Assembly: GCA_964658305.1 (NCBI GenBank)
Contig: OZ210884.1
Coordinates: 5,146,001 to 5,210,000, forward strand
DNA length: 64,000 nt
Origin: Leptogorgia sarmentosa
Lineage: Eukaryota
Direction: 5' to 3'
Positions 15,501 to 39,500 of this stretch are shown here, one piece after another (within the stretch, counting starts at the first letter, position 1; each line of letters starts with the position of its first letter). The translations under genes were made by a program, and so were the position numbers. The notes below the pieces were generated by a model. It had not been told where the DNA came from. It made no database searches and saw nothing but the letters and a program-made list of their open reading frames with translations.

Positions 15501-18500
15501 TTGTAATTAGCTAAAAATAGGTGGTTTGCAATTGGTCTCCATCTTGGTTGACATTTTAAAACACGTGCACAGCAGAACAAGCATCACATAAAACACCTTG
15601 TTGTTGTTACAATCTCTGTAGCTAATAATTGTAATAAACTTCGTAGTATCAACCAAGTTGTCGCCCATTACCAGCTAAAGAAGTTTTATGTGAACGAAGG
15701 ATACAGCGAGATTCAACATTTCAAGCTTTCTTTTGCTGCTTCTTAAAGTTGTTATCCGCTATAATACCAAAACTGGTCACATATTGGATTTAAGTAAAAA
15801 GATGTCTGCTGCACAAATCATTGATTTTTTTGGATTCTTCCCGGAATATCTTAACTTTAGTTTATGTTTATACCGTACGGTACATGGGCTTTGCTTTAAA
15901 CAAAGCGCAGTAGGATGATGTAGGTAAAACATGTATTCTAACCACAATGTGTTCCATTTCCTTGAAAGCCAGGTTTACAATTACAGTCAAAGGTTCCGTT
16001 TTGATTAACACATTCAGCGTTCGGTGAACAATTGTTATCTTCATCGTTGATACATTCATTACGATCTAAAGGAAATCAATCCAAAAATAATCTTTGAATA
16101 CCTCAAATCACACATAAACTGTGACATTCCTAAAAACAATAATCCTGATGTTAATTAATAAAAAAGTTTTATACAGATTCCTGTTGTCGTTTAAAATTCA
16201 TAGATAAAATCAACGTTTTGCAAATAAAGTATAGCTCGTATTGCGGATATGCGGTCATAGCGCTTTAGCCTTCGTTTTTGTTTGTATTTTTGCTTGTCGC
16301 ATGCAGAAAACGAAATGTATGAATACCATCCAAATTTACGATATCTATTTTTGATACTAGAAATACTGTCGTCCTGTTTTCTTGTATTGCGTCATATTTT
16401 TTGTAAACAGCCTGTCATCTCTAGTTCTGCTTTTTCAAATAGATATCTTGAAATTCATGTGATAATAAAACATGAAAGGAGGGCAACTTCACCGGCAAAC
16501 ATACCCTACGTTATATCATACCTTTGCAATCAAATCCATCTCCAGTCCAACCTGGATTACAAGCACATGAATACGACCCAAGAGAATTGGTGCAAGTTGC
16601 CTGTTCATGACAGGTATCAGTATCGAGGTCGCATTCGTTGATATCTGAATAATAAAATAAATTTTCTGGAACTGTACTAACACGACTGCAGTTAAATGAA
16701 TAAAAATATTTCCTGGAATGTTTTCTATTGTATACCTTGGCAATCAAATCCATCTCCAGTCCAACCTGGATTACAAGCACATGAATACGACCCAGGAGAA
16801 TTGTTGCAAGTTGCCTGTTCATGACAGGTATCAATATCGAGGTCGCATTCGTTGATATCTGAAGAATAAATATAATATATGTTACTGAACTAACAACAAG
16901 ACTGCAGTTACGTGAATAAAAATATTTCCTGGATGTTTTCTTTTGTATACCTTGGCAATCAAAACCATCTCCAGTCCAACCAGGATTACAAGCACATGAA
17001 TACGAACCGGGAGAATTGCTGCAAATTGCCTGTTCATGACAGGTATCAGTATCGAGGACGCATTCGTTGATATCTGCAGAATAAATAATAAATTTTCTGG
17101 CACTGTACTAACATGACTGCAGCTAGGTGAATAAAAATATTTCCTGGAATGTTTTCTTTTCTATACCTTGGCAATCAAATCCATCTCCAGTCCAACCTGG
17201 ATTACAAGCACATAAATACGACCCAAGAGAATTGCTGCAAATTGCCTGTTCATGACAGGTATCAATATCGAGGTCGCATTCGTTGATATCTGAAGAATAA
17301 ATAATAAATTTTCTGGCACTGTACTAACATGACTGCAGCTAGGTGAATAAAAACATTTCCTGGAATATATTCTATTGTATACCTTCGCAATCAATTCCAT
17401 CTCCAGTCCAACCTGGATTACAAGCACATGAATACGACCCTGGAGAATTGGTGCAATTTGCCTGTTCATGACAGGTATCAATATTGAGGTCGCATGGGTG
17501 GATAGCTGAAGAATAAAATGAAATATGTGGTATTGTACTAAGTAAACATGACTGCAGTTAGGTGAATAAAAATATTTCCTGGAATGTTTTCTATTGTATA
17601 CCTTGGCAATCAAAACCATCTCCAGTCCAACCTGGATTACAAGCACATGAATACGACCCAGGAGAATTGGTGCAAGTTGCCTGTTCATGACAGGGATCAA
17701 TATAGAGGTCGCATTCGTTGATATCTGAAGAATAAATATAATATATGTTACTGAACTAACAACAAGACTGCAGTTACGTGAATAAAAATATTTCATTGAA
17801 TGTTTTCTTTTGTATACCTTGACAATCAAATCCATCTCCAGTCCAACCTGGATTACAAGCACATAAATACGACCCAGGAGAATTGGTGCAAATTGCCTGT
17901 TCATGACAGGTATTAGTATCGAGGTCGCATTCGTTGATATCTGCAAAATAAAATAAAATATGTGGTATTGTACTAACATGACTGAAGCTAGGTGAATGAA
18001 AATATTTCCTGGAATGTTTTCTATTGTATACCTTGGCAATCAAATCCATCTCCAGTCCAACCTGAATTACAAGCACATGAATACGACCCAGGAGAATTGG
18101 TGCAAGTTGCCTGTTCATGACAGGCATCAATATCGAGGTCGCATTCGTTGATATCTGAAGAATAAATAATAAATTTTCAGGCACTGTACTAACATGACTG
18201 CAGGTAGGTGAATAAAAATATTTCCCGGAATGTTTTCTATTGTATACCTTGGCAATCAAATCCATCTCCACTCCAACCTAGATTACAAGCACATGAATAC
18301 GACCCAGGAGAATTTGTGCAAGTTGCCTGTTCATGACAGGTATCAGTATCGAGGTCGCATTCGTTGATATCTGAAGAATAAAACAAAATATCTGGTACTG
18401 TGCTAACATGACTGCAGCTAGGTGAATGAAAATATTTCCTGGAATCTTTTCTTTTGTATACCTTGGCATTCAAATCCATCTCCAGTCCAACCTGGATTAC

Positions 18501-21500
18501 AAGCACATGAATACGACCCAGGAGAATTGGTGCAAGTTGCCTGTTCATGACAGGTATGAGTATCGAGGTCGCATTCGTTGATATCTGCAGAATGAAATAA
18601 AATATGTGGTGTTGTACTAACATGACTGCGGCTAGTTGAATAAAAACATTGCCTGGACTATTTCCTTTATATACCTGGTTGGCAATCAAATCCATGTCCA
18701 GTCCAACCTGGATTACAAGCACATGAATAAAACCCAGGAGAATTGGTGCAAGTTGCCTGTTCATGACAGGGATCAGGATCAAGGTCGCATTCGTTGATAT
18801 CTGCACAATAAAAACAAAATATATGGTATTGTACTAACATGACTGCAGGTGAATAAAAATATTTCCTGGAATGTTTTGTATTGTATACCTTGGCAATCAA
18901 ATCCATCTCCAGTCCAACCTGGATTACAAGCGCATGAATACGACCCAGGAGAATTGGTGCAAGTTGCCTGTCCATGACAGCTGTGAATGTTAACCTCGCA
19001 TTCGTTAATTTCTATAATGAGAGATTAATTGATAATTAATCTCAATTAATTCATTTATATTTGAGAGAAAAAAAAGAAATCAATACGTCAATATTCGTCA
19101 TGCGGTGAATGAAAATCTGGGGAGGGAAGGTTTCTTTGTTCAAAAATTATTTGGCTACCTTGGCAATCAAATCCATCTCCAGTCCAACCTGTTTTACAAG
19201 TGCATGAATACGACCCTTCAGTTTCGTTGCACGTTGCCTGGGCATGACAGTTATGAACCCCATCTTGGCATTCCATTCCATCTAATTGTGAAATTCAACA
19301 TTTTTTTTTAAAAAATGAATAAAACATTCGCGCGAAAATGGACAATAGATTAAAATTAAAAATATTAGAAAAAAAGTTTTTTGGCGAAATTTAAAAAAGC
19401 ACATTAGTCTGAATGTTGACGCAATCATGGCCTGTTTCAACCGTCCTAATTCGACGAATGCGCCAGTAGTGGTACAATTCAAGTTAGTCTTTAAAAATGC
19501 ATCCACAATATTGTTTTTTTACTTCATCTTTGTGCTGTGCCATTTCATTGAACATAGCTATGGTTAATAGTCATTGCGCACGTCGTTGAAATTACATTGA
19601 AAGTCGTTGTGCTCCATGACAGGGATACCACACGCTGCATAGTTTCGGTATTGAAATTATGAAAAACTTTCTTTTAATTAAATTAAATGAAAAACTTTAA
19701 TACTGTAACAGCTGAGTGTCATTTATTCATAGAAAAGATTGGCTCGAAGTACGATGAACATGCACACATACCTTGGCATTCAAATCCATCTCCTGTCCAA
19801 CCTAGATTACAAGAACACGAATATGTCCCTGGAGAATTGGTGCAAGTTGCCTGTTCATGACACTCATGGATGTTAAGTTCACATTCATTGATGTCTGAAG
19901 TAGAAATAGAAAATTCATAATGTGAGTAAAATTCAGGCGATGAAACCTGTGTCTTGAAATGCTACTTAGCTTGCATACCTTGACAACTGAATCCATCTCC
20001 ACTCCAACCTGGATGACAAGCACATGAATATGACCCTTGAGTATTGGTGCAATTTCCCTGTTGATGACAGGTATCAATGCCGAGGTCGCATTCGTTGATA
20101 TCTGAAGCAAAATAATCGAATTAGTTTAACAATAACATTGGAGATGTTATCTGATTTATGTCCCCAACAAACCACTACCTGCAAGCTACAAGCTTCAAGT
20201 TGTGTATTAAAGTATGTTCTACACGTTTCAGACAGTAAAGTGGATTATTCAGGGTTAAGTTTTTATTTAATAATCACCCCAGCTTCGAATATCAAGCTGC
20301 TGATCTCAATAAGCGAATTGAAATTTCCCTTTTTGCCGTTAGCCGTATGCCGTAAACGTCAATCTTGAAAAGGCTAATAGTGTTAATTTACGTCAGAGAA
20401 ATGTTTCAAAATTATTTTATAGATTTCAATTTTTTTTTAAAAAATAATTTCTAATTTATTTGGAAAAAATAATTCGTTAAGGTTGTAAGATGAATAAAAT
20501 CTTCACTTCAAAATGTTTTTATCTACATACCTTCACAACTAAATCCATCCCCTGTCCACCCTGAGTCACAAGTACATGAATAAGAGCCTGGAGTATTGCT
20601 GCAATTCGCTTGCTCATGACACTTATGGACTCGATAAACTGGCTTGGCTCTTCGTTTCAATCTGATGATGGTGTCTCCGCATTCATCAATATCTGAGCAA
20701 GAAATCATGATGGTTTTAACCAATATATCCTCTAATCAGTTAACGAAACTTTTATGTGCGGGTATTTGATTAACGGATAGCAAACCTCGACATCTAAATC
20801 CATTTCCAGTCCAACCAGCCTTGCATTCACACGAGTACGACCCAGGAGAATTGGTGCAAGTTGCCTGTTCATGACAGGTGTCAATATCGAGGTCACATTC
20901 GTTGATATCTGCAGATTAAAATATAATATATGTTACTGTACTAAAATGACTGCAGCTAGGTAAATAAAAATATTTCCTGGAATGTTTTCTATTGTATACC
21001 TTGGCAATCAAATCCATCTCCAGTCCAACCTGGATTACAAGCACATGAATACGACCCAGGAGAATTGATGCAAGTTGCCTGTTCATGACAGGTATGAGTA
21101 TCGAGGTCGCATTCGTTGATATCTGCAGAATGAAATGAAATATGTGGTGTTGTACTAACATGACTGCGGCTAGTTGAATGAAAATATTTCCTGGAATGTT
21201 TTCTATTGTATACCTTGGCAAGCAAATCCATCTCCAGTCCAACCTGGATTACAAGCGCATGAATACGACCCAGGAGAATTGGTGCAAGTTGCCTGTTCAT
21301 GACAGCTGTGAATGTTAAGCTCGCATTCGTTAATATCTATAATGAGAAATTAATTGATAATTAATCTCAATTAATTCATTTATATTTGAGAGAAAAAAAA
21401 GAAATCAATACGTCAATATTCGTCATGCGGTGAATGAAAATCTGGGGAAGGAAGGTTTCTTTGTTCAAAAATTATTTGGCTACCTTGGCAGTCAAATCCA

Positions 21501-24500
21501 TTTCCAGTCCAACCTGTTTTACAAGTGCATGAATACGACCCAGGAGAATTGGTGCAAGTTGCCTGTTCATGACAGCTGTGAATGTTAAGCTCGCATTCGT
21601 TAATATCTATAATGAGAGATTAATTGATAATTAATCTCAATTAATTCATTTATATTTGAGAGAAAAAAAAGAAATCAATACGTCAATATTCGTCATGCGG
21701 TGAATGAAAATCTGGGGAAGGAAGGTTTCTTTGTTCAAAAATTATTTGGCTACCTTGGCAGTCAAATCCATTTCCAGTCCAACCTGTTTTACAAGTGCAT
21801 GAATACGACCCAGGAGAATTGGTGCAAGTTGCCTGTTCATGACAGCTGTGAATGTTAAGCTCGCATTCGTTAATATCTATAATGAGAGATTAATTGATAA
21901 TTAATCTCAATTAATTCATTTATATTTGAGAGAAAAAAAAGAAATCAATACGTCAATATTCGTCATGCGGTGAATGAAAATCTGGGGAAGGAAGGTTTCT
22001 TTGTTCAAAAATTATTTGGCTACCTTGGCAATCAAATCCATCTCCAGTCCAACCTGTTTTACAAGTGCATGAATACGACCCTTCAGTTTCGTTGCACGTT
22101 GCCTGGGCATGACAGTTATGAACCCCATCTTGGCATTCCATTCCATCTAATTGTGAAATTCAACATTTTTTTTTAAAAAATGAATAAAACATTCGCGCGA
22201 AAATGGACAATAGATTAAAATTAAAAATATTAGAAAAAAAGTTTTTTGGCGAAATTTAAAAGAGTACTTTAGTGTGAATGTTGCATTATTCATGGCATGT
22301 TTCAACCGCCGTAATTCGTCGAATGCGCCAGTAGTGGTACAATTAAACTTAGTCATTGAAAATGCATCCACAATATTGTTGTTTTACTTCATCCTTGTGC
22401 TGTGCCATGTCATTGGACATAGCTATGGTTAATTCATTGCGCACGTCGTTAAAATTACATTGAAAGTCGTTGTGCTCCATGATAGGGATACCACACGCTG
22501 CATAGTTTCGGTATTTAAATTATGAAAAACGTTCTTTTAATTGAATTAAATGAAAAACTTTAATAAACTTTAGTGTCATTTAGTCATAGAAAAGATTGGA
22601 TCGAAGTACGATGAACATGCACATATACCTTGACAATTAAATCCATCTCCAGTCCAACCTGGATTACAAGCACATGAATATGACCCTTGAGAATTGGTGC
22701 AATTTGCCTGTTGATGACAGGTATCAATGTCGAGGTCGCATTCGTTGATATCTGAAGCGAAAATAATTGAATAGGTTTACAAGAACATTGGAGATGTTAT
22801 CAGATTTATGTCCCCAACAAACCACTACCTGCAAGCTACAAGCTTCAACTTGTGTATTAAAGTATGTTCTACACGTTTCTGACAGTAAAGTGGATTATCC
22901 AGGGTTAAGTTTTTATTTAATAATCACCCCAGCTTCGAATATCAAGCTGCTGATCTCAATAAGCGAATTGAAATTTCCCGTTTTGCGGTTAGCCGTATCC
23001 CGTAAACGTCAATCTTGAAATGAATAATAGTGTTAATTTACGTCAGAGAAATGTCTCAAAATTATTTTGTCGATTTCAATTTTTTTTTAAAAAGTAATTT
23101 CTAATTTATTTGGAAAAGAATAATTCGTTAGGGTTGTGAGATGAATAAAATCTTTACTTCAAAATGTTTTTATCTACATACCTTCACAACTAAATCCATC
23201 CCCTGTCCACCCTGAGTCACAAGTACATGAATAAGAGCCTGGAGTATTGCTGCAATTCGCTTGCTCATGACACTTATGGACTCGATAAACTGGCTTGGCC
23301 CTTCGTTTCAATCTGATGATGGTGTCTCCGCATTCGTCAATATCTGAGCAAGAAATCATGATGGTTTTAACCAATATATCCTCTAATCAGTTAACGAAAC
23401 TTTTATGTGCGGGTATTTGATTAACGGATAGCAAACCTCGACATCTAAATCCATTTCCAGTCCAACCAGCCTTGCATTCACACGAGTACGACCCAGGAGA
23501 ATTGGTGCAAGTTGCCTGTTCATGACAGGGATCAGGATCAAGGTCGCATTCGTTGATATCTTAATAATAAAATAAATTTTCTGGTACTGTACTAACATCA
23601 CTGCAGCTAGGTGAATAAAAATCTTTCCTGGAATGTTTTCTATTGTATACCTTGGCAATCAAATCCATCTCCAGTCCAACCTGGATTACAAGCACATGAA
23701 TAGGACCCAGGAGAATTGATGCAAGATGCCTGGTCATGACAGGTATCAGGATCGACGTCGCATGGGTTGATATCTACAGAATAAAATAAAATATCTGGCA
23801 GTGTACTAACATGGCTACAGCTAGGTGAATAAAAAAATCTCCTGGAATGTGTTCTATTGTATACCTTGGCAATCAAATCCATCTCCAGTCCAACCTGGGT
23901 TACAAGCACATGAATACGACCCAGGAGAATTGGTGCAAGTTGCCTGTTCATGACAGCTGTGAATGTTAAGCTCGCATTCGTTAATATCTATAATGAGAGA
24001 TTGATAATTAATCTCAATTAATTCATTTGTATTTGAGAGAAAAAAAAAGACATCAATACGTCAATAGTCGTCATGCGGTGAATGAAAATCTGGGAGGGGA
24101 AGGTTTCTTTGTTACAAAATTATTTGGCTACCTTGGCAATCAAATCCATCTCCAGTCCAACCTGGATTGCAAGGACATGAATACGACCCAGGAGAATTGG
24201 TGCAAGTTGCCTGTTCATGACAGCTGTGAATGTTAAGCTCGCATTCGTTAATATCTATAATGAGAGATTGATAATTAATCTCAATTAATTCATTTGTATT
24301 TGAGAGAAAAAAAAGACATCAATACGTCAATAGTCGTCATGCGGTGAATGAAAATCTGGGAGGGGAAGGTTTCTTTGTTACAAAATTATTTGGCTACCTT
24401 GGCAATCAAATCCATCTCCAGTCCAACCTGGATTGCAAGGACATGAATACGACCCAGGAGAATTGGTGCAAGTTGCCTGTTCATGACAGCTGTGAATGTT

Positions 24501-27500
24501 AAGCTCGCATTCGTTAATATCTATAATGAGAGATTGATAATTAATCTCAATTAATTCATTTGTATTTGAGAGAAAAAACATCAATACGTCAATAGTCGTC
24601 ATGCGGTGAATGAAAATCTGGGAGGGGAAGGTTTCTTTGTTACAAAATTATTTGGCTACCTTGGCAATCAAATCCATCTCCAGTCCAACCTGGATTACAA
24701 GCACATGAATACGACCCAGGAGAATTGGTGCAAGTTGCCTGTTCATGACAGGTATGAATATCGAGGTCACATTCGTTAATATCTATAATGAGAGATTGAT
24801 AATTAATCTCTATTAATTCGTTTGTATTTGAGAGAAAAAAAAAGACATCAATACGTCAATAGTCGTCATGCGGTGAATGAAAATCTGGGAGGGGAAGGTT
24901 TCTTTGTTACAAAATTATTTGGCTACCTTGGCAATCAAATCCATCTCCAGACCAACCTGGATTGCAAGGACATGAATACGACCCAGGAGAATTGGTGCAA
25001 GTTGCCTGTTCATGACAGCTGTGAATGTTAAGCTCGCATTCGTTAATATCTATAATGAGAGATTGATAATTAATCTCAATTAATTCATTTGTATTTGAGA
25101 GAAAAAAAAAGACATCAATACGTCAATAGTCGTCATGCGGTGAATGAAAATCTGGGAGGGGAAGGTTTCTTTGTTACAAAATTATTTGGCTACCTTGGCA
25201 ATCAAATCCATCTCCAGACCAACCTGGATTGCAAGGACATGAATACGACCCAGGAGAATTGGTGCAAGTTGCCTGTTCATGACAGCTGTGAATGTTAAGC
25301 TCGCATTCGTTAATATCTATAATGAGAGATTGATAATTAATCTCAATTAATTCATTTATATTTGAGAGAAAAAAAAAGACATCAATACGTCAATAGTCGT
25401 CATGCGGTGAATGAAAATCTGGGAGGGGAAGGTTTCTTTGTTACAAAATTATTTGGCTACCTTGGCAATCAAATCCATCTCCAGTCCAACCTGGATTGCA
25501 AGGACATGAATACGACCCAGGAGAATTGGTGCAAGTTGCCTGTTCATGACAGGTATGAATATCGAGGTCACATTCGTTGATATCTGCAGAATAAAATAAA
25601 ATATTTGGTATTGTACTAACATGAATGCAGCTAGGTGAATAAAAGTATTTCCTGAAATGTTTTCTATGGTTTACCTTGGCAATCAAATCCATCTCCAGAC
25701 CAACCCGGATTACAAGCACATGAATAGGACCCAGGAGAATTGGTGCAAGTTGCCTGTTCATGACAGCTGTGAATGTTAAGCTCGCATTCGTTAATATCTA
25801 TAATGAGAGATTGATAATTAATCTAAATTAATTCATTTATATTTGAGAGAAAAAAAGACATCAATACGTTAATATTCGTAATGCGGTGAATGAAAATCTG
25901 GGGAGGGAAGGTTTCTTTGTTCAAAAATTATTTGGCTACCTTGGCAATCAAATCCATCTCCAGTCCAACCTGGATTACAAGCACATGAATACGACCCAGG
26001 AGAATTGGTGCAAGTTGCCTGTTCATGACAGCTGTGAATGTTAAGCTCGCATTCGTTAATATCTATAATGAGAGATTGATAATTAATCTCAATTAGTTCA
26101 TTTATATTTGAGAGAAAAAAAGACATCAATACGTTAATATTCGTAATGCGGTGAATGAAAATCTGGGGAGGGAAGGTTTCTTTGTTCAAAAATTATTTGG
26201 CTACCTTGGCAATCAAATCCATCTCCAGTCCAACCTGGATTACAAGCACATGAATACGACCCAGGAGAATTGGTGCAAGTTGCCTGTTTATGACAGCTGT
26301 GAATGTTAAGCTCGCATTCGTTAATATCTATAATGAGAGATTGATAATTAATCTCAATTAATTCATTTATATTTGAGAGAAAAAAAGACATCAATACGTT
26401 AATATTCGTAATGCGGTGAATGAAAATCTGGCGAGGGAAGGTTTCTTTGTTCAAAAATTATTTGGCTACCTTGGCAATCAAATCCATCTCCAGTCCAACC
26501 TGGATTACAAGCACATGAATACGACCCAGGAGAATTGGTGCAAGTTGCCTGTTCATGACAGCTGTGAATGTTAAGCTCGCATTCGTTAATATCTATAATG
26601 AGAGATTGATAATTAATCTCAATTAATTCATTTATATTTGAGAGAAAAAAAGACATCAATACGTTAATATTCGTAATGCGGTGAATGAAAATCTGGCGAG
26701 GGAAGGTTTCTTTGTTCAAAAATTATTTGGCTACCTTGGCAATCAAATCTATCTCCAGTCCAACCTGGATTACAAGCACATGAATACGACCCAGGAGAAT
26801 TGGTGCAAGTTGCCTGTTCATCACAGCTGTGAATGTTAAGCTCGCATTCGTTAATATCTATAATGAGAGATTGATAATTAATCTCAATTAATTCATTTAT
26901 ATTTGAGAGAAAAAAAGACATCAATACGTTAATATTCGTAATGCGGTGAATGAAAATCTGGCGAGGGAAGGTTTCTTTGTTCAAAAATTATTTGGCTACC
27001 TTGGCAATCAAATCCATCTCCAGTCCAACCTGGATTACAAGCACATGAATACGACCCAGGAGAATTGGTGCAAGTTGCCTGTTCATCACAGCTGTGAATG
27101 TTAAGCTCGCATTCGTTAATATCTATAATGAGAGATTGATAATTAATCTCAATTAATTCATTTATATTTGAGAGAAAAAAAGACATCAATACGTTAATAT
27201 TCGTAATGCGGTGAATGAAAATCTGGCGAGGGAAGGTTTCTTTGTTCAAAAATTATTTGGCTACCTTGGCAATCAAATCCATCTCCAGTCCAACCTGGAT
27301 TACAAGCACATGAATACGACCCAGGAGAATTGGTGCAAGTTGCCTGTTCATGACAGCTGTGAATGTTAAGCTCGCATTCGTTAATATCTATAATGAGAGA
27401 TTGATAATTAATCTCAATTAGTTCGTTTATATTTGAGAGAAAAAAAGACATCAATACGTTAATATTCGTAATGCGGTGAATGAAAATCTGGGGAGGGTAG

Positions 27501-30500
27501 GTTTCTTTGTTCAAAAATTATTTGGCTACCTTGGCAATCAAATCCATCTCCAGTCCAACCTGTTTTACAAGTGCATGAATACGACCCTTCAGTTTCGTTG
27601 CACGTTGCCTGCTCATGACAGTTATGAACCCCATCTTGGCATTCCATTCCATCTAATTTGAAATTCAACATTTTGTTTTGTTAAAAAAATGAATAAAAAG
27701 TTCGCTCGTAAATGCACAATAGATTATAATTTAAAACATTACAAAAAAACATTTTTTGGCGAAATTTAAAAGAGTACTTTAGTGTGAATGTTGCATTATT
27801 CATGGCATGTTTCAACGGCCGTAATTCGTCGAATGCGCCAGTATTGGTACAATTAAACTTAGTCATTGAAAATGCATCCACAATATTGTTGTTTTACTTC
27901 ATCCTTGTGCTGTGCCATTTCATTGGACATAGCTATGGTTAATTCATTGCGCACGTCGTTAAAATTACATTGAAAGTCGTTGTTCTCCATGATAAGGATA
28001 CCACACGCTGCATAGTTTCGGTATTGAAATTATGAAAAACGTTCTTTTAATTGAATTAAATGAAAAACTTCAATAAACTTTAGTGTCATTTAGTCATAGA
28101 AAAGATTGGATCGAAGTACGATGAACATGCACATATACCTTGACAATTAAATCCATCTCCAGTCCAACCTGGATTACAAGCACATGAATATGACCCTTGA
28201 GAATTGGTGCAATTTGCCTGTTCATGACAGGTATCAATATCGAGGTCGCATTCGTTAATATCTGAAGCAAAAATAATCGAATTAGTTTTACAAGAACATT
28301 GGAGATGTTATCTGATTTATGTCCCCAACAAACCACTACCTGCAAGCTACAAGCTTCAACTTGTGTATTAAAGTATGTTCTACACGTTTCTGACAGTAAA
28401 GTGGATTATTCAGGGTTACGTTTTTATTTAATAATCTCCCCAGCTTCGGATATCAAGCTGCTGATCTCAATAAGCGAATTGAAATTTCTCTTTTTGCGGT
28501 TAGCCGTATGCCGTAAACATCAATCTTGAAATGGCTAATAGTGTTAATTTACGTCATAGAAATGTCTCAAATTTATTTTATTGATTTCAATTTTTTTTTA
28601 AGAAATAATTTCTAATGTATTTGGAAAAAAATAATTCGTGAAGGTTGTAAGATGAATAAAATCGTTACTTCAAAAGGTTTTTATCTACATACCTCCACAA
28701 CTAAATCCATCCCCTGTCCACCCTGAGTCACAAGTACATGAATAAGAGCCTGGAGTATTGCTGCAATTCGCTTGCTCATGACACTTATGGACTCGATAAA
28801 CTGGCTTGGCTCTTCGTTTCCATCTGATGATGGTGTCTCCGCATTCGTCAATATCTGACCAAAAAATCATTATGGTTTTAAACAATATATCCTTTAATCA
28901 GTTAAGGAAACTTTTATGTGTAGGTATTGTATTAACGAATTGCAAACCTTGACATCTAAATCCATTTCCAGTCCAACCAGCCTTGCATTCACACGAATAC
29001 GACCCAGGCGAATTGGTGCAAGTTGCCTGTTCATGACAGGTATCAACATCGAGGTCGCATTCGTTAATATCTGCAGAATGAAATAAAATATGTGGTGTTG
29101 TACTAATATGACTGCAGCTAGGTGAATAAAAGTATTTCCTGGAATGTTTTCCATTCTATACCTTGGCAATTAAATCCATCTCCAGTCCAACCTGGATTAC
29201 AAGCACATGAATACGACCCAGGAGAATTGGTGCAAGTTGCCTGTTCATGACAGGGATCAGTATCGAGGTCGCATTCGTTGATATCTGAATAATAAAATAA
29301 ATTTTCTGGTACTGTACTAACATGAGTGCAGTTACGTGAATAAAAATATTTCATGGAATGTTTTGTATTGTATACCTTGGCAATCACTTCCATCTCCAGT
29401 CCAACCTGGATTACAAGCACATGAATACGACCCAGGAGAATTGGAGCAAGTTGCCTTTTGATGACAGGGATCAGGATCAAGGTCGCATTCGTTGATATCT
29501 GAAAAATAAAATAAATATTCTGGTACTGTACTAACATCACTGCAGCTAGGTGAATGAAAATATTTCCTGGAATGTTTTCTATTGTATACCTTGACATCTA
29601 AATCCATCTCCAGTCCAACCTGTATTACAAGCACATGAATACGACCCAGGAGAATTGGTGCAAGTTGCCTGTTCATGACAGGGATCAGGATCGCGGTCGC
29701 ATTCGTTGATATCTGAATTATAAAATTAATTTTCTGGTACTGTACTAACATCACTGCAGCTAGGTGAATGAAAATATTTCCTGGAAAGTTTTCTATTGTA
29801 TACCTTGGCAATCAAATCCATCTCCAGACCAACCCGGATTACAAGCACATGAATACGACCCAGGAGAATTGGTGCAAGTTGCCTGTTCATGACAGGGATC
29901 AGGATCAAGATCGCATTCGTTGATATCTGAATAATAAAATAAATTTTCTCTACTATACTAACATCACTCCAGCTAGGTGAATAAAAATATTTCCTGAAAT
30001 GTTTTCTATTGTATACCTTGGCAACCAAATCCATCTCCAGTCCAACCTGGATTACAAGCACATGAATACGACCCAGGAGAATTGGAGCAAGTTGCCTTTT
30101 GATGACAGGGATCAGGATCAAGGTCGCATTCGTTGATATCTGAAAAATAAAATAAATTTTCTGGTACTGTGCTAACATCACTCCAGCTAGGTGAATGAAA
30201 ATATTTCCTGGAATGTTTTCTGTTGTATACCTTGGCAAGCTAATCCGTCTCCAGTCCAACCTGGATTACAAGCGCATGAATACGACCCAGGAGAATTGGT
30301 GCAAGTTGCCTGTTCATGACAGGGATCAGGATCAAGGTCGCATTCGTTGATATCTGAATAATAAAATAAATATTCTGGTACTGTACTAACATCACTGCAG
30401 CTAGGTGAATGAAAATATTTCCTGGAATGTTTTGTATTGTATACCTTGACATCTAAATCCATCTCCAGTCCAACCTGTATTACAAGCACATGAATACGAC

Positions 30501-33500
30501 CCGGGAGAATTGGTGCAAGTTGCCTGTTCATGACAGGGATCAGTATCGAGGTCGCATTCGTTGACATCTGAATAATAAAATAAATTTTCTGGTACTGTAC
30601 TAACATCACTGCAGCTAGGTGAATGAAAATATTTCCTGGAATATTTTCTATTGTATACCTTGACATCTAAATCCATCTCCAGTCCAACCTGTATTACAAG
30701 CACATGAATACGACCCAGGAGAATTGGTGCAAGTTGCCTGTTCATGACAGGGATCAGGATCAAGATCGCATTCGTTGATATCTGAATAATGAAATAAATT
30801 TTCTCTACAATACTAACATCACTCCAGCTAGGTGAATAAAAATATTTCCTGAAATGTTTTCTATTGTATACCTTGGCAACCAAATCCATCTCCAGTCCAA
30901 CCCGGATTACAAGCACATGAATACGACCCAGGAGAATTGGTGCAAGTTGCCTGTTCATGACAGGTATCAGTATCGAGGTCGCATTCGTTGACATCTGAAT
31001 AATAAAATAAATTTTCTGGTACTGTACTAACATCACTGCAGCTAGGTGAATGAAAATATTTCCTGGAATGTTTTCTATTGTATACCTTGACATCTAAATC
31101 CATCTCCAGTCCAACCTGTATTACAAGCACATGAATACGACCCAGGAGAATTGGTGCAAGTTGCCTGTTCATGACAGGGATCAGTATCGAGGTCGCATTC
31201 GTTGATATCTGCAGAATAAAATAAAAGATGTGGTACTGTACAAAAATTGCTGCGCCTAGGTGAATAAAAATATTTCCTGGAATGTTTTCTATTGTATACC
31301 TTCGCAATCAAATCCATTTCCAATCCAACCTGGATTACAAGCACATGAATATGACCCAGGAGAATTGGTGCAAGTTGCCTGTTCATGACAGGGATCAGTA
31401 TCGAGGTCGCATTCGTTGATATCTGAATAATAAAATAAATTTTCTCTACAATACTAACATCACTGCAGCTAGGTGAATGAAAATATTTCCTGGAATGTTT
31501 TCTATTGTATACCTTGACATCTAAATCCATCTCCAGTCCAACCTGTATTACAAGCACATGAATACGACCCAGGAGAATTGGTGCAAGTTGCCTGTTCATG
31601 ACAGGGATCAGTATCGAGGTCGCATTCGTTGATATCTGCAGAATAAAATAAAAGATGTGGTACTGTACAAAAATTGCTGCAGCTAGGTGAATGAAAATAT
31701 TTCCTGGAATGTTTTCTATTGTATACCTTGACATCTAAATCCATCTCCAGTCCAACCTGTATTACAAGCACATGAATACGACCCAGGAGAATTGGTGCAA
31801 GTTGCCTGTTCATGACAGGGATCAGTATCGAGGTCGCATTCGTTGATATCTGAATAATAAAATAAATTTTCTGGTACTGTACTAACATCACTGCAGCTAG
31901 GTGAATGAAAATATTTCCTGGAATGTTTTCTATTGTATACCTTGACATCTAAATCCATCTCCAGACCAACCCGGATTACAAGCACATGAATACGACCCAG
32001 GAGAATTGGTGCAAGTTGCCTGTTCATGACAGGGATCAGGATCGCGGTCGCATTCGTTGATATCTGCAGAATAAAATAAATTTTCTGTTACTGTACTAAC
32101 ATCGCTGCAGCTAGGTGAATGAAAATATTTCCTGGAATGTTTTCTATTGTATACCTTGGCAATCAAATCCATCTCCAGACCAACCCGGATTACAAGCACA
32201 TGAATACGACCCAGGAGAATTGGTGCAAGTTGCCTGTTCATGACAGGGATCAGGATCAAGATCGCATTCGTTGATATCTGAATAATAAAATAAATTTTCT
32301 CTACTATACTAACATCACTCCAGCTAGGTGAATAAAAATATTTCCTGAAATGTTTTCTATTGTATACCTTGGCAACCAAATCCATCTCCAGACCAACCCG
32401 GATTACAAGCACATGAATACGACCCAGGAGAATTGGTGCAAGTTGCCTGTTCATGACAGGGATCAGGATCAAGATCGCATTCGTTGATATCTGAATAATA
32501 AAATAAATTTTCTCTACTAAACTAACATCACTCCAGCTAGGTGAATAAAAATATTTCCTGAAATGTTTTCTATTGTATACCTTGGCAACCAAGTCCATCT
32601 CCAGTCCAACCTGGATTACAAGCACATGAATACGACCCAGGAGAATTGGTGCAAGTTGCCTGTTCATGACAGGGATCAGTATCGAGGACGCATTCGTTGA
32701 CATCTGAATAATAAAATAAATTTTCTGGTACTGTACTAACATCACTGCAGCTAGGTGAATGAAAATATTTCCTGGAATGTTTTCTATTGTATACCTTGAC
32801 ATCTAAATCCATCTCCAGTCCAACCACCGTTACAAGCACATGAATACGACCCAGGAGAATTGGTGCAAGTTGCCTGTTCATGACAGGGATCAGGATCGCG
32901 GTCGCATTCGTTGACATCTGAATAATAAAATAAATTTTCTGGTACTGTACTAACATCACTGCAGCTAGGTGAATGAAAATATTTCCTGGAATGTTTTCTA
33001 TTGTATACCTTGGCAATCAAATCCATCTCCAGACCAACCCGGATTACAAGCACATGAATACGACCCAGGAGAATTGGTGCAAGTTGCCTGTTCATGACAG
33101 GGATCAGGATCGCGGTCGCATTCGTTGATATCTGCAGAATAAAATAAATTTTCTGGTACTGTACTAACATCGCTGCAGCTAGGTGAATGAAAATATTTCC
33201 TGGAATGTTTTCTATTGTATACCTTGGCAATCAAATCCATCTCCAGACCAACCCGGATTACAAGCACATGAATACGACCCAGGAGAATTGGTGCAAGTTG
33301 CCTGTTCATGACAGGGATCAGGATCAAGATCGCATTCGTTGATCTCTGAATAATAAAATAAATTTTCTCTACTATACTAACATCACTCCAGCTAGGTGAA
33401 TAAAAATATTTCCTGAAATGTTTTCTATTGTATACCTTGGCAACCAAATCCATCTCCAGTCCAACCCGGATTACAAGCACATGAATACGACCCAGGAGAA

Positions 33501-36500
33501 TTGGTGCAAGTTGCCTGTTCATGACAGGGATCAGTATCGAGGTCGCATTCGTTGACATCTGAATAATAAAATAAATTTTCTGGTACTGCACTAACATCAC
33601 TGCAGCTAGGTGAATGAAAATATTTCCTGGAATGTTTTCTATTGTATACCTTGACATCTAAATCCATCTCCAGTCCAACCTGTATTACAAGCACATGAAT
33701 ACGACCCAGGAGAATTGGTGCAAGTTGCCTGTTCATGACAGGGATCAGTATCGAGGTCGCATTCGTTGACATCTGAATAATAAAATAAATTTTCTGGTAC
33801 TGTACTAACATCACTGCAGCTAGTTGAATGAAAATATTTCCTGGAATGTTTTCTATTGTATACCTTGACATCTAAATCCATCTCCAGTCCAACCACCGTT
33901 ACAAGCACATGAATACGACCCAGGAGAATTGGTGCAAGTTGCCTGTTCATGACAGGGATCAGGATCGCGGTCGCATTCGTTGATATCTGAATAATAAAAT
34001 AAATTTTCTGGTACTGTACTAACATCACTGCAGCTAGGTGATTGAAAATATTTCCTGGAATGTTTTCTATTGTATACCTTGACATCTAAATCCATCTCCA
34101 GTCCAACCTGTATTACAAGCACATGAATACGACCCAGGAGAATTGGTGCAAGTTGCCTGTTCATGACAGGGATCAGGATCAAGGTCGCATTCGTTGATAT
34201 CTGAATAATAAAATAAATTTTCTCTACTATACTAACATCACTCGAGCTAGGTGAATAAAAATATTTCCTGGAATGTTTTCTATTGTATACCTTGGCAACC
34301 AAATCCATCTCCAGTCCAACCCGGATTACAAGCACATGAATACGACCCAGGAGAATTGGTGCAAGTTGCCTGTTCATGACAGGGATCAGGATCAAGATCG
34401 CATTCGTTGATATCTGAATAATAAAATAAATTTTCTCTACTATACTAACATCACTCCAGCTAGGTGAATAAAAATATTTCCTGAAATGTTTTCTATTGTA
34501 TACCTTGGCAACCAAATCCATCTCCAGTCCAACCTGGATTACAAGCACATGAATACAACCCAGGAGAATTGGTGCAAGTTGCCTGTTCATGACAGGGATC
34601 AGTATCGAGGACGCATTCGTTGACATCTGAATAATAAAATAAATTTTCTGGTACTGTACTAACATCACTGCAGCTAGGTGAATGAAAATATTTCCTGGAA
34701 TGTTTTCTATTATATACCTTGACATCTAAATCCATCTCCAGTCCAACCACCGTTACAAGCACATGAATACGACCCAGGAGAATTGGTGCAAGTTGCCTGT
34801 TCATGACAGGGATCAGGATCGCGGTCGCATTCGTTGACATCTGAATAATAAAATAAATTTTCTGGTACTGTACTAACATCACTGCAGCTAGGTGAATGAA
34901 AATATTTCCTGGAATGTTTTCTATTGTATACCTTGGCAATCAAATCCATCTCCAGACCAACCCGGATTACAAGCACATGAATACGACCCAGGAGAATTGG
35001 TGCAAGTTGCCTGTTCATGACAGGGATCAGGATCGCGGTCGCATTCGTTGATATCTGCAGAATAAAATAAATTTTCTGGTACTGTACTAACATCGCTGCA
35101 GCTAGGTGATTGAAAATATTTCCTGGAATTTTTTCTATTGTATACCTTGGCAATCAAATCCATCTCCAGACCAACCCGGATTACAAGCACATGAATACGA
35201 CCCAGGAGAATTGGTGCAAGTTGCCTGTTCATGACAGGGATCAGGATCAAGATCGCATTCGTTGATCTCTGAATAATAAAATAAATTTTCTCTACTATAC
35301 TAACATCACTCCAGCTAGGTGAATAAAAATATTTCCTGAAATGTTTTCTATTGTATACCTTGGCAACCAAATCCATCTCCAGTCCAACCCGGATTACAAG
35401 CACATGAATACGACCCAGGAGAATTGGTGCAAGTTGCCTGTTCATGACAGGGATCAGTATCGAGGTCGCATTCGTTGACATCTGAATAATAAAATAAATT
35501 TTCTGGTACTGCACTAACATCACTGCAGCTAGGTGAATGAAAATATTTCCTGGAATGTTTTCTATTGTATACCTTGACATCTAAATCCATCTCCAGTCCA
35601 ACCTGTATTACAAGCACATGAATACGACCCAGGAGAATTGCTGCAAGTTGCCTGTTCATGACAGGGATCAGGATCGCGGTCGCATTCGTTGATATCTGAA
35701 TAATAAAATAAATTTTCTGGTACTGTACTAACATCACTGCAGCTAGGTGAATGAAAATATTTATTGGAATGTTTTCTATTGTATACCTTGACATCTAAAT
35801 CCATCTCCAGTCCAACCTGTATTACAAGCACATGAATACGACCCAGGAGAATTGCTGCAAGTTGCCTGTTCATGACAGGGATCAGGATCGCGGTCGCATT
35901 CGTTGATATCTGAATAATAAAATAAATTTTCTGGTACTGTACTAACATCACTGCAGCTAGGTGAATGAAAATATTTATTGGAATGTTTTCTATTGTATAC
36001 CTTGACATCTAAATCCATCTCCAGTCCAACCACCGTTACAAGCACATGAATACGACCCAGGAGAATTGGTGCAAGTTGCCTGTTCATGACAGGGATCAGG
36101 ATCGCGGTCGCATTCGTTGATATCTGAATAATAAAATAAATTTTCTGGTACTGTACTAACATCACTGCAGCTAGGTGATTGAAAATATTTCCTGGAATGT
36201 TTTCTATTGTATACCTTGACATCTAAATCCATCTCCAGTCCAACCTGTATTACAAGCACATGAATACGACCCAGGAGAATTGGTGCAAGTTGCCTGTTCA
36301 TGACAGGGATCAGGATCAAGGTCGCATTCGTTGATATCTGAATAATAAAATAAATTTTCTCTACTATACTAACATCACTCGAGCTAGGTGAATAAAAATA
36401 TTTCCTGGAATGTTTTCTATTGTATACCTTGGCAACCAAATCCATCTCCAGTCCAACCCGGATTACAAGCACATGAATACGACCCAGGAGAATTGCTGCA

Positions 36501-39500
36501 AGTTGCCTGTTCATGACAGGGATCAGTATCGAGGACGCATTCGTTGACATCTGAATAATAAAATAAATTTTCTGGTACTGTACTAACATCACTGCAGCTA
36601 GGTGAATGAAAATATTTCCTGGAATGTTTTCTATTGTATACCTTGACATCTAAATCCATCTCCAGTCCAACCACCGTTACAAGCACATGAATACGACCCA
36701 GGAGAATTGGTGCAAGTTGCCTGTTCATGACAGGGATCAGGATCGCGGTCGCATTCGTTGATGTCTGAAGCAGAAATAAAATATTTTTAGGTCGAACTGT
36801 AAGTATTCAACTTTTGTACGTTCAAACGTTTTGTTCTTTGTGTCCATAAAATTCTTGGTGTTTGTACATTGTTTATTCCATATCGTTAGTTAGGAATGTT
36901 TTGACAGTTATGGCGAATTGAAAATTAGTCCATAAGATTTTCTCAACTGAAGGCAATAATACAATTGCACGGCGGACCTGTGCAAGTACTGCCGTTCCAT
37001 GTGTATCCGTTGCTACAGAGGCACGTAAATGATCCTTGTGTGTTCCAGCATGTTGCTCCAGAATCACAGTTATGGGTACCACTAGTACATTCGTCAAAAT
37101 CTAAAAAGATTGTAGTTGCTTTTCTATCATATGCTGGATAGTTACTAAGGCAGGACGATTTTAGATTTGCGAAAATAATCACGCTATGGAAACCATTTCA
37201 ATATATATGGACGACGAAATTTGAGGCGCGTTTTTACACCGGCGGTTTTTGCAGCAGTGTTAGATTCGATTTTCTCCGTTTGAACTAGGTTACAGAGTTG
37301 AAGAGTTACAAATGTTCCACTTTATGAAATGTAAAAACAACTTTAATAAGTAATGTGCTCCTTTACTTCGTTGAAATGGAGATCAATCCTATAATCGCAG
37401 CAAAAACCGCCGGTGGTAGTAGCCTAAAGAAATGAATGCCGTATTGTTGTTGGACTGCATTCTCCAAAGATACTATTAGAGCTAGACCAAAATAGGGGAA
37501 TCACATTTTTCAAACAATGATCGTACCGCAATACTAACCTGTACATGTATGGCCATCTCCTGTGTAACCAGGATTACAAGAGCACGTAAATGATCCATTT
37601 GTGTTTGTGCATGTTGCTTCATCATGATTAGAATCGCAGCTATGGCTACCGCTGGTACATTCGTTAATATCTGAGAAATGATTGTAATGTTGCTGACAGA
37701 TACAGTGTAGTAAACAAACTGATTCAAATTTTCGACTGGAAAAGATTTCTCATCACTGTTTGAACAACTTATTTCAAACCAATGATATTTTTATTACATG
37801 GTTGAACATTCTGTTCACATATAGGAATGATACTGTTTTGAGATACTTAGTTCAGGGGTAAGAACGATGAAGATTTAGTTAAACCTCATGGAAATAGAAA
37901 GTTTAGAAACAATAATACCAACCTGTACATGTTTGGCCATCTCCTGTGTAACCAGGGTTGCACGCGCACGTAAATGATCCATGTGTGTTTGTGCATGTTG
38001 CTTCATCTGGATCAGGATCACAGTTATGGCCACCGCTGGTGCATTCGTTAATATCTGGAAAAGGATTAGAATTGCGGTGTTATCACAACAATATGAACAC
38101 GAGAACGCGAGGTTGGATTTGCTCTTCAAAATTCCCCGGAAAAAAAAGTCAATAGGAATATGGAATCTATGTTTTTATAATATTCTCGAAGACCATGATA
38201 CAATAATACCAACCTGTACATGTGTTTCCGTCTCCTGTGTAACCAGGGTTGCACGCGCAGGTAAATGATCCTTGTGTGTTTGTGCATGTTGCTTCGTCTG
38301 GATCAGAATCACAGTCATGGCTACCACTTGTACATTCGTTAATATCTGAAAAAAGATTGTAGTTGTTTGGTTACATGTTGCATCAAACTCAGCAATTCAC
38401 ATTCTTCTTTCGCTAGGATGACTCCTCAATTAGTTGAATATTTAATTTCAAACCAATGATATTTATTTCAACACCAGCTTATGGTATCTGCACGTTTTCG
38501 TATTCTTGAAATATTATACAAAAGCAACAAAAGATGGGATGTAGCAGAACATAACTGCACTATATCGCCCCATGTGAGGTAATCCGGAGGGCATTTGGAA
38601 TCCAGACCGCCCTCCTTGCTTCCGGATAACAGCCTCTGCATTCCAGATCCCCAACCTTGGTTCCGGATAACCATCTCTGAATTCCAGATCCCCAACCTTG
38701 GTTCCGGATAACCATCTCTGGATTCCAGATCCCCAACCTTGGTTCCGGATAACCATCTCTGGATTCCAGATCCCCAACCTTGGTTCCGGATAACCATCTC
38801 TCCATTCCAGATCCCCAACCTTGGTTCCGGATAACCATCTCTGGATTCCAGATCCCCAACCTTGGTTCCGGATAACCGCCTCTGGATTCCAGATCCCCAA
38901 CCTTGGTTCCGGATAACCGCCTCTGGATTCCAGATCCCCAACCTTGGTTCCGGATAACCGCCTCTGGATTCCAGTTCCCCAACCTTGGTTCCGGATAACC
39001 GCCTCTGGATTCCAGATCCCCAACCTTGGTTCCGGATAACCGCCTCTGGATTCCAGATCCCCAACCTTGGTTCCGGATAACCGCCTCTGGATTCCAGATC
39101 CCCAACCATGGTTCCGGATAACCGCCTCTGGATTCCAGATCCCCAACCTTGGTTCCGGATAACCGCCTCTGGATTCCAGATCCCCAACCTTGGTTCCGGA
39201 TAACCGCCTCTGGATTCCAGATCCCCAACCATGGTTCCGGATAACCGCCTCTGGATTCCAGATCCCCAACCTTGGTTCCGGATAACCGCCTCTGGATTCC
39301 AGATCCCCAACCTTGGTTCCGGATAACCGCCTCTGGATTCCTGATCCCCAACCTTGGTTCCAGATAACCGCCTCTGGATTCCAGATCCCCAACCTTGGTT
39401 CCGGATAACCGCCTCTGGATTCCAGATCCCCAACCTTGGTTCCGGATAACCGCCTCTGGATTCCTGATCCCCAACCCTGGTTCCGGACAACCATCTCTGG

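Follow-up and report, generated by a model that had tools for sequence, protein, structure and literature searches.

The giant membrane proteins MUA-3 and MUP-4 of Caenorhabditis elegans, the membrane mucins MUC3, MUC12 and MUC17, the fibrillins, Dumpy of Drosophila and the kringle IV-2 (KIV-2) array of human LPA are the described systems that come closest to the locus analysed here, a long run of exons for calcium-binding epidermal growth factor (cbEGF; EGF for the wider family) modules in Leptogorgia sarmentosa. The run lies in a window of 64,000 nucleotides (nt), by which we mean the whole stretch of DNA analysed (GenBank assembly GCA_964658305.1, contig OZ210884.1, positions 5,146,001 to 5,210,000 of the forward strand); coordinates below count from its first letter. 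We give a probability of about 0.75 to the reading that this run is a real, transcribed array of 80 cbEGF exons and the predicted rod-like stalk of a single-pass membrane protein.

MUA-3 is described as a protein of 3,767 residues with 52 EGF modules and a proposed reach of as much as 150 nm into the apical matrix (PMC2150771). As that account portrays MUA-3 and MUP-4, the gene that contains the run resembles them as a predicted giant single-pass membrane protein, mostly EGF, with a SEA domain near the membrane, and differs from them in its tail, which has about 38 residues here and 223-328 residues there (PMC2150771), where it is a filament-binding cytoplasmic domain. It also differs in a predicted Calx-beta domain upstream, in almost twice as many EGF modules and in that these modules are recent copies of exon plus intron. 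The VWA module of these proteins and the LDL-A module of MUA-3 gave no Pfam match in the open frames of the window. In MUC3, MUC12 and MUC17 the C-terminal order is given as EGF, SEA, EGF, membrane helix and short tail (PMC13643018), the same order as predicted here, and a long tandemly repeated extracellular domain precedes the SEA cassette in both cases. Unlike in these mucins, the repeat consists of 80 folded cbEGFs in 80 exons, not of a one-exon O-glycosylated domain rich in proline, threonine and serine (PTS), and SEA carries G-S-I-G-A in place of G-S-[VI]-V-V.

Long cbEGF runs, a linker of one residue and the consensus D-x-N-E-C ... N ... G-S-Y-x-C are common to the locus and the fibrillins, whereas for this locus a predicted membrane anchor, near-identical units and about twice the number of cbEGFs make the difference. 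Fibrillins contain 43-47 cbEGFs, and the original prediction for this locus of about twice that count agrees with the run, which has 80, and with the gene as a whole, which has 92 or more. Human LPA KIV-2 is a coding exon-intron macrosatellite whose hallmark is copy-number polymorphism; there as here, a domain-sized unit of exon plus intron is arranged head to tail and in frame, and gain or loss of a unit changes length only. Unlike KIV-2, the present array has 80 one-exon units of only 214-270 bp and is known from one assembled array. In Dumpy, a repeat evolving in concert by unequal crossover is reported inside a giant EGF protein, within one exon and not made of EGF (PMC2930355). That homogenised repeat is the 102-residue PIGSFEAST unit in one large exon, whereas here EGF exons are homogenised with their introns, and the DPY or ZP modules of Dumpy were not found in the window. 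Tandem duplication of EGFs bordered by exons is textbook knowledge (PMC1553488), and ascidian coat proteins with polymorphic EGF repeats are known (PMC9265791). The closest that our literature search came to a described EGF exon-intron macrosatellite was Dumpy, a general study of repeat expansion and a study of duplication in coral.

The run of 80 exons and its transcripts

A Cys-pattern scan, checked against splice sites and RNA joints, placed 80 EGF exons on the minus strand within 16522-36764, numbered here 1 to 80 in transcript order, from 36764 down to 16522. The original prediction had put about 80 exons of phase 1-1 in this interval, those inspected being open, with six Cys and GT/AG borders. 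The results showed that the count is exactly 80, that the limits are the outer exon borders, and that 80/80 exons have AG/GT borders, phase 1-1, a length divisible by three and exactly six Cys in a C-C-C-C-x-C-C pattern. Exon length is 123 nt in 76 of the 80, 126 nt in one and 162 nt in three; joined, the exons give 9960 nt and 3319 residues with 480 Cys and no stop. Their form on the reverse strand is D-I-N-E-C...C...C-x-N-x-x-G-S-Y-x-C-x-C...C. Over six frames of the window, the scan itself returned 92 EGF-like matches, 77 of which are minus-strand matches within 16526-36753, each preceded by AG, trailed by GT and in phase 1. Three putative long introns of about 685 nt were rejected because RNA joints place one 162-nt EGF exon in each, and three putative 135-nt exons were rejected because the joints give 123 nt with a GTATGT-type donor, the pattern having reached an intron Cys.

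At 16518-36769, Tandem Repeats Finder reported a chain of arrays whose periods are 214-216 and 265-270 bp; the scores, as high as 13210, put a repeat arising by chance out of the question. The earlier description of the units as near-identical was right in that the repeat of exon plus intron is real, and too strong for exons that comprise 64 distinct DNA sequences and 59 distinct peptides. The Pfam scan of individual units covered four plain units and the 162-nt exon. All four plain units matched EGF_CA (PF07645) with 35.4-42.6 bits against a cut-off of 27 and EGF_3 (PF12947) with 44.8-49.4 bits against 28.5, while the 162-nt exon matched EGF_3 with 47.8 bits (E value 1.7e-12) and EGF_CA with 32.8 bits against 27.

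Calcium binding by EGF modules is marked by the motifs D/N-x-D/N-E/Q before C1 and C-x-D/N-x4-F/Y-x-C-x-C. Both Ca2+-ligand motifs are present in 72/80 units, the exceptions being exons 8, 17, 40, 55, 59, 68, 69 and 76. One residue separates C6 from the next D-x-N-E-C, and the rigid cbEGF tandems of fibrillin and Notch have this same linker (C6-Q-D-I-N-E-C1) and this same Ca2+ consensus. Among solved structures, the sequence matched Notch1 (5uk5, E value 4e-14) better than the cbEGF pair of fibrillin-1 (1lmj, E value 5e-8). With the consensus kept in 72 units and a linker of one residue, the run would therefore be a Ca2+-stiffened rod. The exons that follow each long intron (27530-27652, 22024-22146 and 19159-19281) begin with D-G-M-E-C, not D-I-N-E-C, and carry an N-E-T sequon. 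The eight units without the full consensus, these D-G-M-E-C exons included, may be hinge points in the rod. In addition, 67/80 units contain C2-x4-(S/T)-C3 (C-H-E-Q-A-T-C), which we take to be the O-fucose consensus of Notch-type EGFs, and the O-glucose motif C1-x-S-x-P/A-C2 occurs in 0/80.

Four samples of one study (X8 to X11), none of them on record as RNA, contributed spliced contigs. We infer that they are RNA from this splicing and from exon depth far above intron depth in their contigs (385-508 compared with 3.7-9.9). Joints at 21876>22024, 20908>21000, 20692>20786, 20101>20531, 19894>19979 and 19281>19772 were observed, and RNA joints confirm the borders of exons 58/59, 63/64, 64/65, 65/66, 66/67 and 67/68. 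Those within the part of the run that we call block I read CT..AC on the plus strand, that is, GT..AG on the minus strand, and the two joints of its 162-nt exon were found in 4/4 runs (20101>20531) and 3/4 runs (20692>20786). In X8 and X9, a contig of 834/835 nt leads from the last 33-34 nt of exon 80 into a first EGF exon after the run (15943-16065, also predicted by the scan), a 138-nt cbEGF exon (15176-15313, Pfam EGF_CA) and the first SEA exon (14799-14914), all on the minus strand. Its joints, 16065>16522, 15311>15941 (cut shifted by +2) and 14914>15176, were seen in both runs and read GT..AG on the minus strand; the contig continues for 424 nt, the first 30 of which match 13454-13483 directly behind an AG. 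Apart from the exceptions named below, the RNA contigs join each exon to its neighbour. These results show that the array is transcribed, spliced at the predicted borders and joined in RNA to the first SEA exon.

Several other joints were set aside. The joint 21122>22024, present in 4/4 runs, would skip exons 60-62 and was rejected because its short side of 19-26 nt is shared exactly by 19 exons, and joints that go back or read GG..TT were rejected as repeat mis-placements. The bins at 21383-21745 have no RNA cover; exons 60 and 61 there are identical, and contigs were placed once each.

Read depth had been proposed as a check against expansion by the assembler, and in both DNA samples the depth of array words is many times that of the flank. 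In X1, which may be the sample behind the window's assembly, unique flanks reach about 70-90 and contigs with array words 2276-3204; in X4, from another study and sample, the values are about 5.5 and 148-179. The same words occur 13-46 times in the window, so that array words are no less frequent in the reads than in the assembly, which argues against over-expansion; the measure is rough, as it sums the depths of similar contigs and may include paralogs from other loci. It is quite improbable that the assembler inflated or scrambled the copy number and that the true locus has far fewer units. Assembly is difficult for tandem units of 214-270 bp that are 93-99% identical, and no read or contig placed from X8-X11, X1 or X4 spans more than a few of them; against this stand the 64 distinct exon sequences, a nested structure in which intron length differs among sub-arrays and the array edges have diverged, a youngest duplicate that differs at 9/1281 sites, and an array-word depth that, relative to the flank, roughly equals or exceeds the multiplicity of these words in the window in both DNA samples.

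Layers, probable exchange and selection within the run

The run is layered and not uniform. In transcript order on the minus strand, array A (29071-36764, exons 1-36) has units of 213-214 bp, each a 123-nt exon plus a 90-91-nt intron, and is followed by block III (27530-29070, exons 37-40), four distinctive EGFs separated by introns of 93, 431 and 486 nt. Array B1 (25675-27387, exons 41-47) has 265-bp units of the ELNIHS type with 142-nt introns, and array B2 (23865-25583, exons 48-54) 267-bp units with 139-144-nt introns. Block II (22024-23559, exons 56-59) repeats the four exon types of block III, array B3 (21214-21876, exons 60-62) has 270-bp units with 147-nt introns, and block I (19159-20908, exons 64-68) is built as blocks II and III with an extra EGF exon, 67. 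Array C (16522-18800, exons 70-80) has units of about 216 bp, matches at 89% in Tandem Repeats Finder and is the oldest part; exons 55, 63 and 69 stand singly.

Each block of 1.5 kb contains one 162-nt EGF exon (20531-20692 in block I, with copies at 23182-23343 and 28693-28854, all on the minus strand), and the three copies are 98-99% identical. This exon carries a basic insert of 13 residues in the C1-C2 loop (R-L/W-K-R-R-A-K), which fits R-x-K-R, the convertase pattern. A convertase cut in this loop would leave halves joined by disulfides. The basic motif was not found among the 150 best matches, where only P0074 aligns across the insert, with long C1-C2 loops that lack the motif.

Sequence similarity among the layers carries the traces of their growth. 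The blocks are pairwise 94-96% identical over 1.5 kb, introns included (94.8% between III and II), and the 265-270-bp units of the B arrays are about 99% identical. A unit of array A often has its best partner at a distance of nine units, and the six-unit segment at 34201-35481 recurs 1923 bp away at 32278-33558 with 9 mismatches in 1281 bp and no indel (99.3%), while the units at the 3' edge of the array are only 92-95% like any other unit. The lag-9 partners, the copied segment and the diverged edges are marks of repeated unequal exchange or multi-unit duplication, less active at the edges. Growth by recombination, as originally proposed, is thus borne out by the repeated segment of 1281 bp and the three blocks, and the run likely grew by unequal crossing-over between units of exon plus intron. 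In the order that we propose, the old 216-bp array C would have come first, the composite block would then have been triplicated, local bursts of 265-270-bp and 214-bp units would have followed, and the copying of the six-unit segment within array A would be the latest event. Since all exons are symmetric, unequal exchange alters stalk length and leaves the frame intact, and this symmetry is probably the reason that the run could grow so far.

The mean pairwise difference (p) of exons and introns separates the layers by age. In array A it is 0.063 for exons and 0.063 for introns, in array B1 (exons 41-46) 0.0098 and 0.0085, and among the ELNIHS-type units of array B2 0.005 and 0.007, so that the B arrays overall range from 0.005 to 0.010 in exons and from 0.007 to 0.009 in introns. 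Between blocks the values are 0.028-0.041 for exons and 0.040-0.075 for introns, and in array C (exons 71-79) 0.063 and 0.120. Exon and intron are equally alike in the young layers, which were copied whole, exon with intron; in the older layers, exon divergence is about half that of the intron.

The ratio of nonsynonymous to synonymous differences among units, a check suggested in the original prediction, was 0.27-0.69 as pN/pS and below 1 in every sub-array (list of 77 exons). In the 40 whole codons of the 76 exons of 123 nt, we counted 112 distinct variant states. A neutral expectation computed with the observed mix of transitions and transversions gave 5.7 stops and 12.9 Cys losses, compared with 0 and 0 observed (P = 1.5e-9), indicating that the frame and the disulfide scaffold are guarded while loop residues are free to vary. 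Nonsynonymous states were mildly reduced, at 79/112 compared with an expected share of 0.782 (p = 0.035). By these results, the reading frame and the Cys scaffold are clearly under purifying selection. Positive selection left no sign in the pairwise measure, which is weak on copies that exchange sequence.

Variation between units is clustered at a few positions, as had been noted (DLDTDP/DRDPDP/ELNIHS, NPG/NTG/NGG and D/R/G before C6); array A varies at codons 1 (I/V), 5, 6 (R/L), 8 (P/T), 30 (P/T/G), 33 (T/S) and 38 (R/G/D). Such clustering could point to a variable recognition surface, in which unit number, order and loop residues differ by allele or by transcript and serve self/non-self, gamete or pathogen recognition. 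The same reading draws on the 59 distinct peptides among the 80 units, on a nonsynonymous share only slightly under neutral, on units that are 99-100% identical over 214 bp and so invite unequal exchange, and on the ascidian coat protein HrVC70, for which such a role has been proposed and which is reported as polymorphic at restricted sites of its EGF repeats (PMC9265791). We consider it unlikely. A pN/pS below 1 in every sub-array speaks against it, the variable codons lie in loops that vary in any EGF family, where tolerance explains them, and much of the pattern between units was inherited through the copying of several units at a time, as the lag-9 partners show, not site by site.

One RNA joint could also be taken for variation by transcript: 17505>17818, seen in X9 at a depth of 34 and with 34 nt on its shorter side, would leave out exon 75. 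Exon 76 has a unique start, but the 34-nt ends of exons 74 and 75 are each one base from the generic end of many exons, so a one-base allelic difference in an exon end would mimic the skipping, and the joint is ambiguous. Taken together, the variation between units looks like ordinary loop tolerance under purifying selection and not like hypervariability.

The predicted membrane-anchored end and the upstream part of the gene

The gene spans at least 9576-42555 on the minus strand. Its predicted product exceeds 4,000 residues and combines Calx-beta and 92 EGFs with SEA, a membrane helix and a tail about 38 residues long. Read towards the C-terminus, the order would be Calx-beta, 9 cbEGF, the 80 cbEGF of the run, 2 cbEGF, SEA, EGF, membrane helix and tail. 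The two EGF exons after the run are followed by exons that have no Pfam match of their own, and a search with one of these found P0010, a protein of 251 residues from a public assembly, at 73% identity. In P0010, a SEA domain (28.1 bits against a cut-off of 26.4) is followed by an EGF, a hydrophobic helix of 26 residues and a basic tail, and the protein maps in order to six exons of the window at 63-88% identity, ending at the stop (14796-14927, 13412-13483, 12900-13085, 11380-11556, 10048-10167 and 9576-9731).

All six exons lie on the minus strand. The first SEA exon, whose RNA-supported borders are those given above, is 70% identical to P0010 residues 1-44; the second (13412-13483), reached by the end of the RNA contig, is 87.5% identical to residues 44-67; and the third (12900-13085, borders approximate) was found by tblastn with P0010 at 72.6% identity. 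They are followed by the membrane-proximal EGF exon (11380-11556, borders approximate; Pfam EGF_3, 69% identical to P0010), by a predicted membrane-helix exon (10048-10167) in an open reading frame with a stretch of 26 residues and then R, 77.5% identical to P0010 residues 176-215, and by the last coding exon (9576-9731, 5' border approximate), which would give a basic cytoplasmic tail ending in ...ETAVY before the stop. An extracellular stalk had been predicted for the run, and the exon order together with P0010 agrees with it, the gene ending in SEA, EGF and membrane helix. Look-alikes of P0010 under a language model (score 0.91, lead level) were clusters of mucin-12, mucin-17-like, IMPG2 and HEG1 proteins.

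In membrane mucins, the juxtamembrane SEA domain is described as a self-cleaving, force-sensitive joint with the motif G/S[V/I]VV (PMC13643018). The corresponding residues are G-S-I-G-A in the window, G-S-V-G-A in P0010 and G-S-V-G-V in a convergent paralog nearby; G-S and the first V/I of the motif are kept, and the next two residues are not. By analogy with these mucins, the juxtamembrane SEA of the present protein would serve as a mechanical weak link or shedding point.

Could the run instead belong to a secreted, fibrillin-type protein of matrix fibrils, with the exons from SEA to the helix in another transcript? The linker geometry of the cbEGFs is fibrillin-like, and the closest named match of a unit is a crinoid 'fibrillin-2-like' protein at 55% identity. 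However, one RNA contig in each of two runs links exon 80 through two EGFs to the first and second SEA exons, and P0010 runs through SEA, EGF, hydrophobic helix and basic tail in an order that matches the window exons. No TB/8-Cys domain was found in open frames of at least 50 residues outside the array (at least about 60 residues for 42-64 kb). We therefore regard a secreted fibril protein as very improbable and keep to the membrane-anchored stalk.

The convergent paralog lies tail to tail with the gene at 455-5784 on the plus strand and has the same EGF-SEA-EGF end, with EGF exons at 473, 1681, 2007 and 2481, SEA-like exons at 3693-3809 and 4697-4906, and a further EGF at 5635-5784. Its SEA-like exons match the two halves of the SEA profile below threshold, and its membrane-proximal EGF gave a sub-threshold match to Pfam EGF_Mua-3 (23.8 bits against 27). 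Its own EGF run, if any, would lie before the start of the window. At 15099-15153, many contigs of both DNA runs end with differing loose ends, and the depth rises to 29432-60105 in X1 and 1516-2690 in X4, which suggests a short, highly repeated element in the intron beside the exon at 15176-15313.

Upstream of the run, nine diverged cbEGF exons are predicted on the minus strand between 36978 and 41972, with AG/GT borders, a length of 123 or 132 nt, phase 1-1 and matches to Pfam EGF_CA and EGF_3. The first five lie at 41850-41972, 41566-41688, 40953-41075, 40542-40673 and 39944-40075, and the last four at 38214-38345, 37923-38054, 37539-37670 and 36978-37100. Further upstream, an open frame at 42274-42555 (minus strand) holds the second half of a predicted Calx-beta domain (E value 9.2e-6, profile positions 46-119 of 119); a protein search with this frame returned 120 candidates, none of them significant. 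Between the exons at 39944-40075 and 38214-38345, the gene contains a minisatellite of 41 bp (38596-39521, 22.6 copies, 95% matches). Because three units make 123 nt (3 x 41), all three minus-strand frames of the minisatellite are open, over 338-347 residues; by our own arithmetic, a 41-mer is free of stops by chance with a probability of about 0.14. The minisatellite has no Pfam match.

Beyond the gene, fragments of a KDZ-type transposase with the CxC1/CxC2 Cys cluster (52105-54780, plus strand; E values 5e-9 and 1e-10) are broken over several frames and are probably a decayed transposon. A 263-residue open frame at 59749-60537 (plus strand) contains a partial protein-kinase domain (E value 8e-10), and a 283-residue open frame at 61574-62422 (minus strand) a GTF2I-like repeat (E value 5e-8); both are candidates for neighbouring genes or transposon cargo. 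Two small satellites about 2 kb apart, 46131-46320 and 48131-48372, are built on a 25-bp unit, ATCGACGTCGA....

Predicted role of the protein and place of the run among EGF arrays

If each EGF contributes about 3 nm, the value applied to MUA-3 (PMC2150771), the 92 modules would form a rod of up to about 0.27 micrometre. Judged by analogy with MUA-3/MUP-4, Dumpy and the membrane mucins, the protein likely acts as a long apical surface tether or spacer. A more far-reaching version would make the locus a hypervariable macrosatellite, whose alleles differ in cbEGF number and order, so that the length, about a quarter micrometre, and the surface pattern of a membrane-tethered rod would vary among individuals, as in a molecule for self/non-self or gamete recognition, and whose three regularly placed EGFs with an R-x-K-R loop would be convertase sites at which the rod is cut into segments held together by disulfides; we regard this version as possible and rather doubtful.

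Several points weigh against the reading of the run as the stalk of a membrane protein. The Calx-beta match has 26.1 bits, just under the cut-off of 27, and a first exon with a signal peptide was not found, although a candidate Met lies at 43825. The window's own SEA exons are below Pfam significance, so that the SEA call leans on P0010, and the membrane helix was read by eye from the sequence. Contigs collapse repeats and no single molecule spans the array, which leaves the number and order of units to the assembly. A single haplotype cannot separate unequal crossing-over from gene conversion or replication slippage, and the function is deduced from architecture alone.

The similarity among the units was compared with that in the 40 EGF-richest proteins (24-66 EGFs each) of the best 150 of 5979 matches to one EGF. 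Here 1080/2926 pairs of EGFs are at least 85% identical, compared with at most 29/134 in any of those 40 proteins. Among proteins of 71-2000 residues none was near-identical to a unit, the best reaching 65-80% identity. On its predicted domains, the gene is not a fibrillin (no TB domain was found in the open frames searched, and a membrane anchor is predicted) and not a mucin (it has no PTS domain), and it is like MUA-3 in architecture only, given the short tail and the absence of VWA and LDL-A matches from the open frames of the window. What sets the run apart is scale and similarity: it is among the largest runs of near-identical folded-domain exons found, and an extreme case of familiar repeat expansion.

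That such runs are rare does not follow, since genes of this kind would tend to drop from view in collapsed assemblies and in gene prediction. For annotators this is a caution, as gene models from short reads and protein searches limited to 2000 residues miss them. Layers of different age stand side by side in the run, all in phase 1-1, and form a clean record of how a modular extracellular protein lengthens. Should unit number differ from one individual to another, the locus would offer a tractable way to measure unequal crossing-over in a coding repeat and to study the effect that the length of a stalk stiffened by Ca2+ has at the cell surface.

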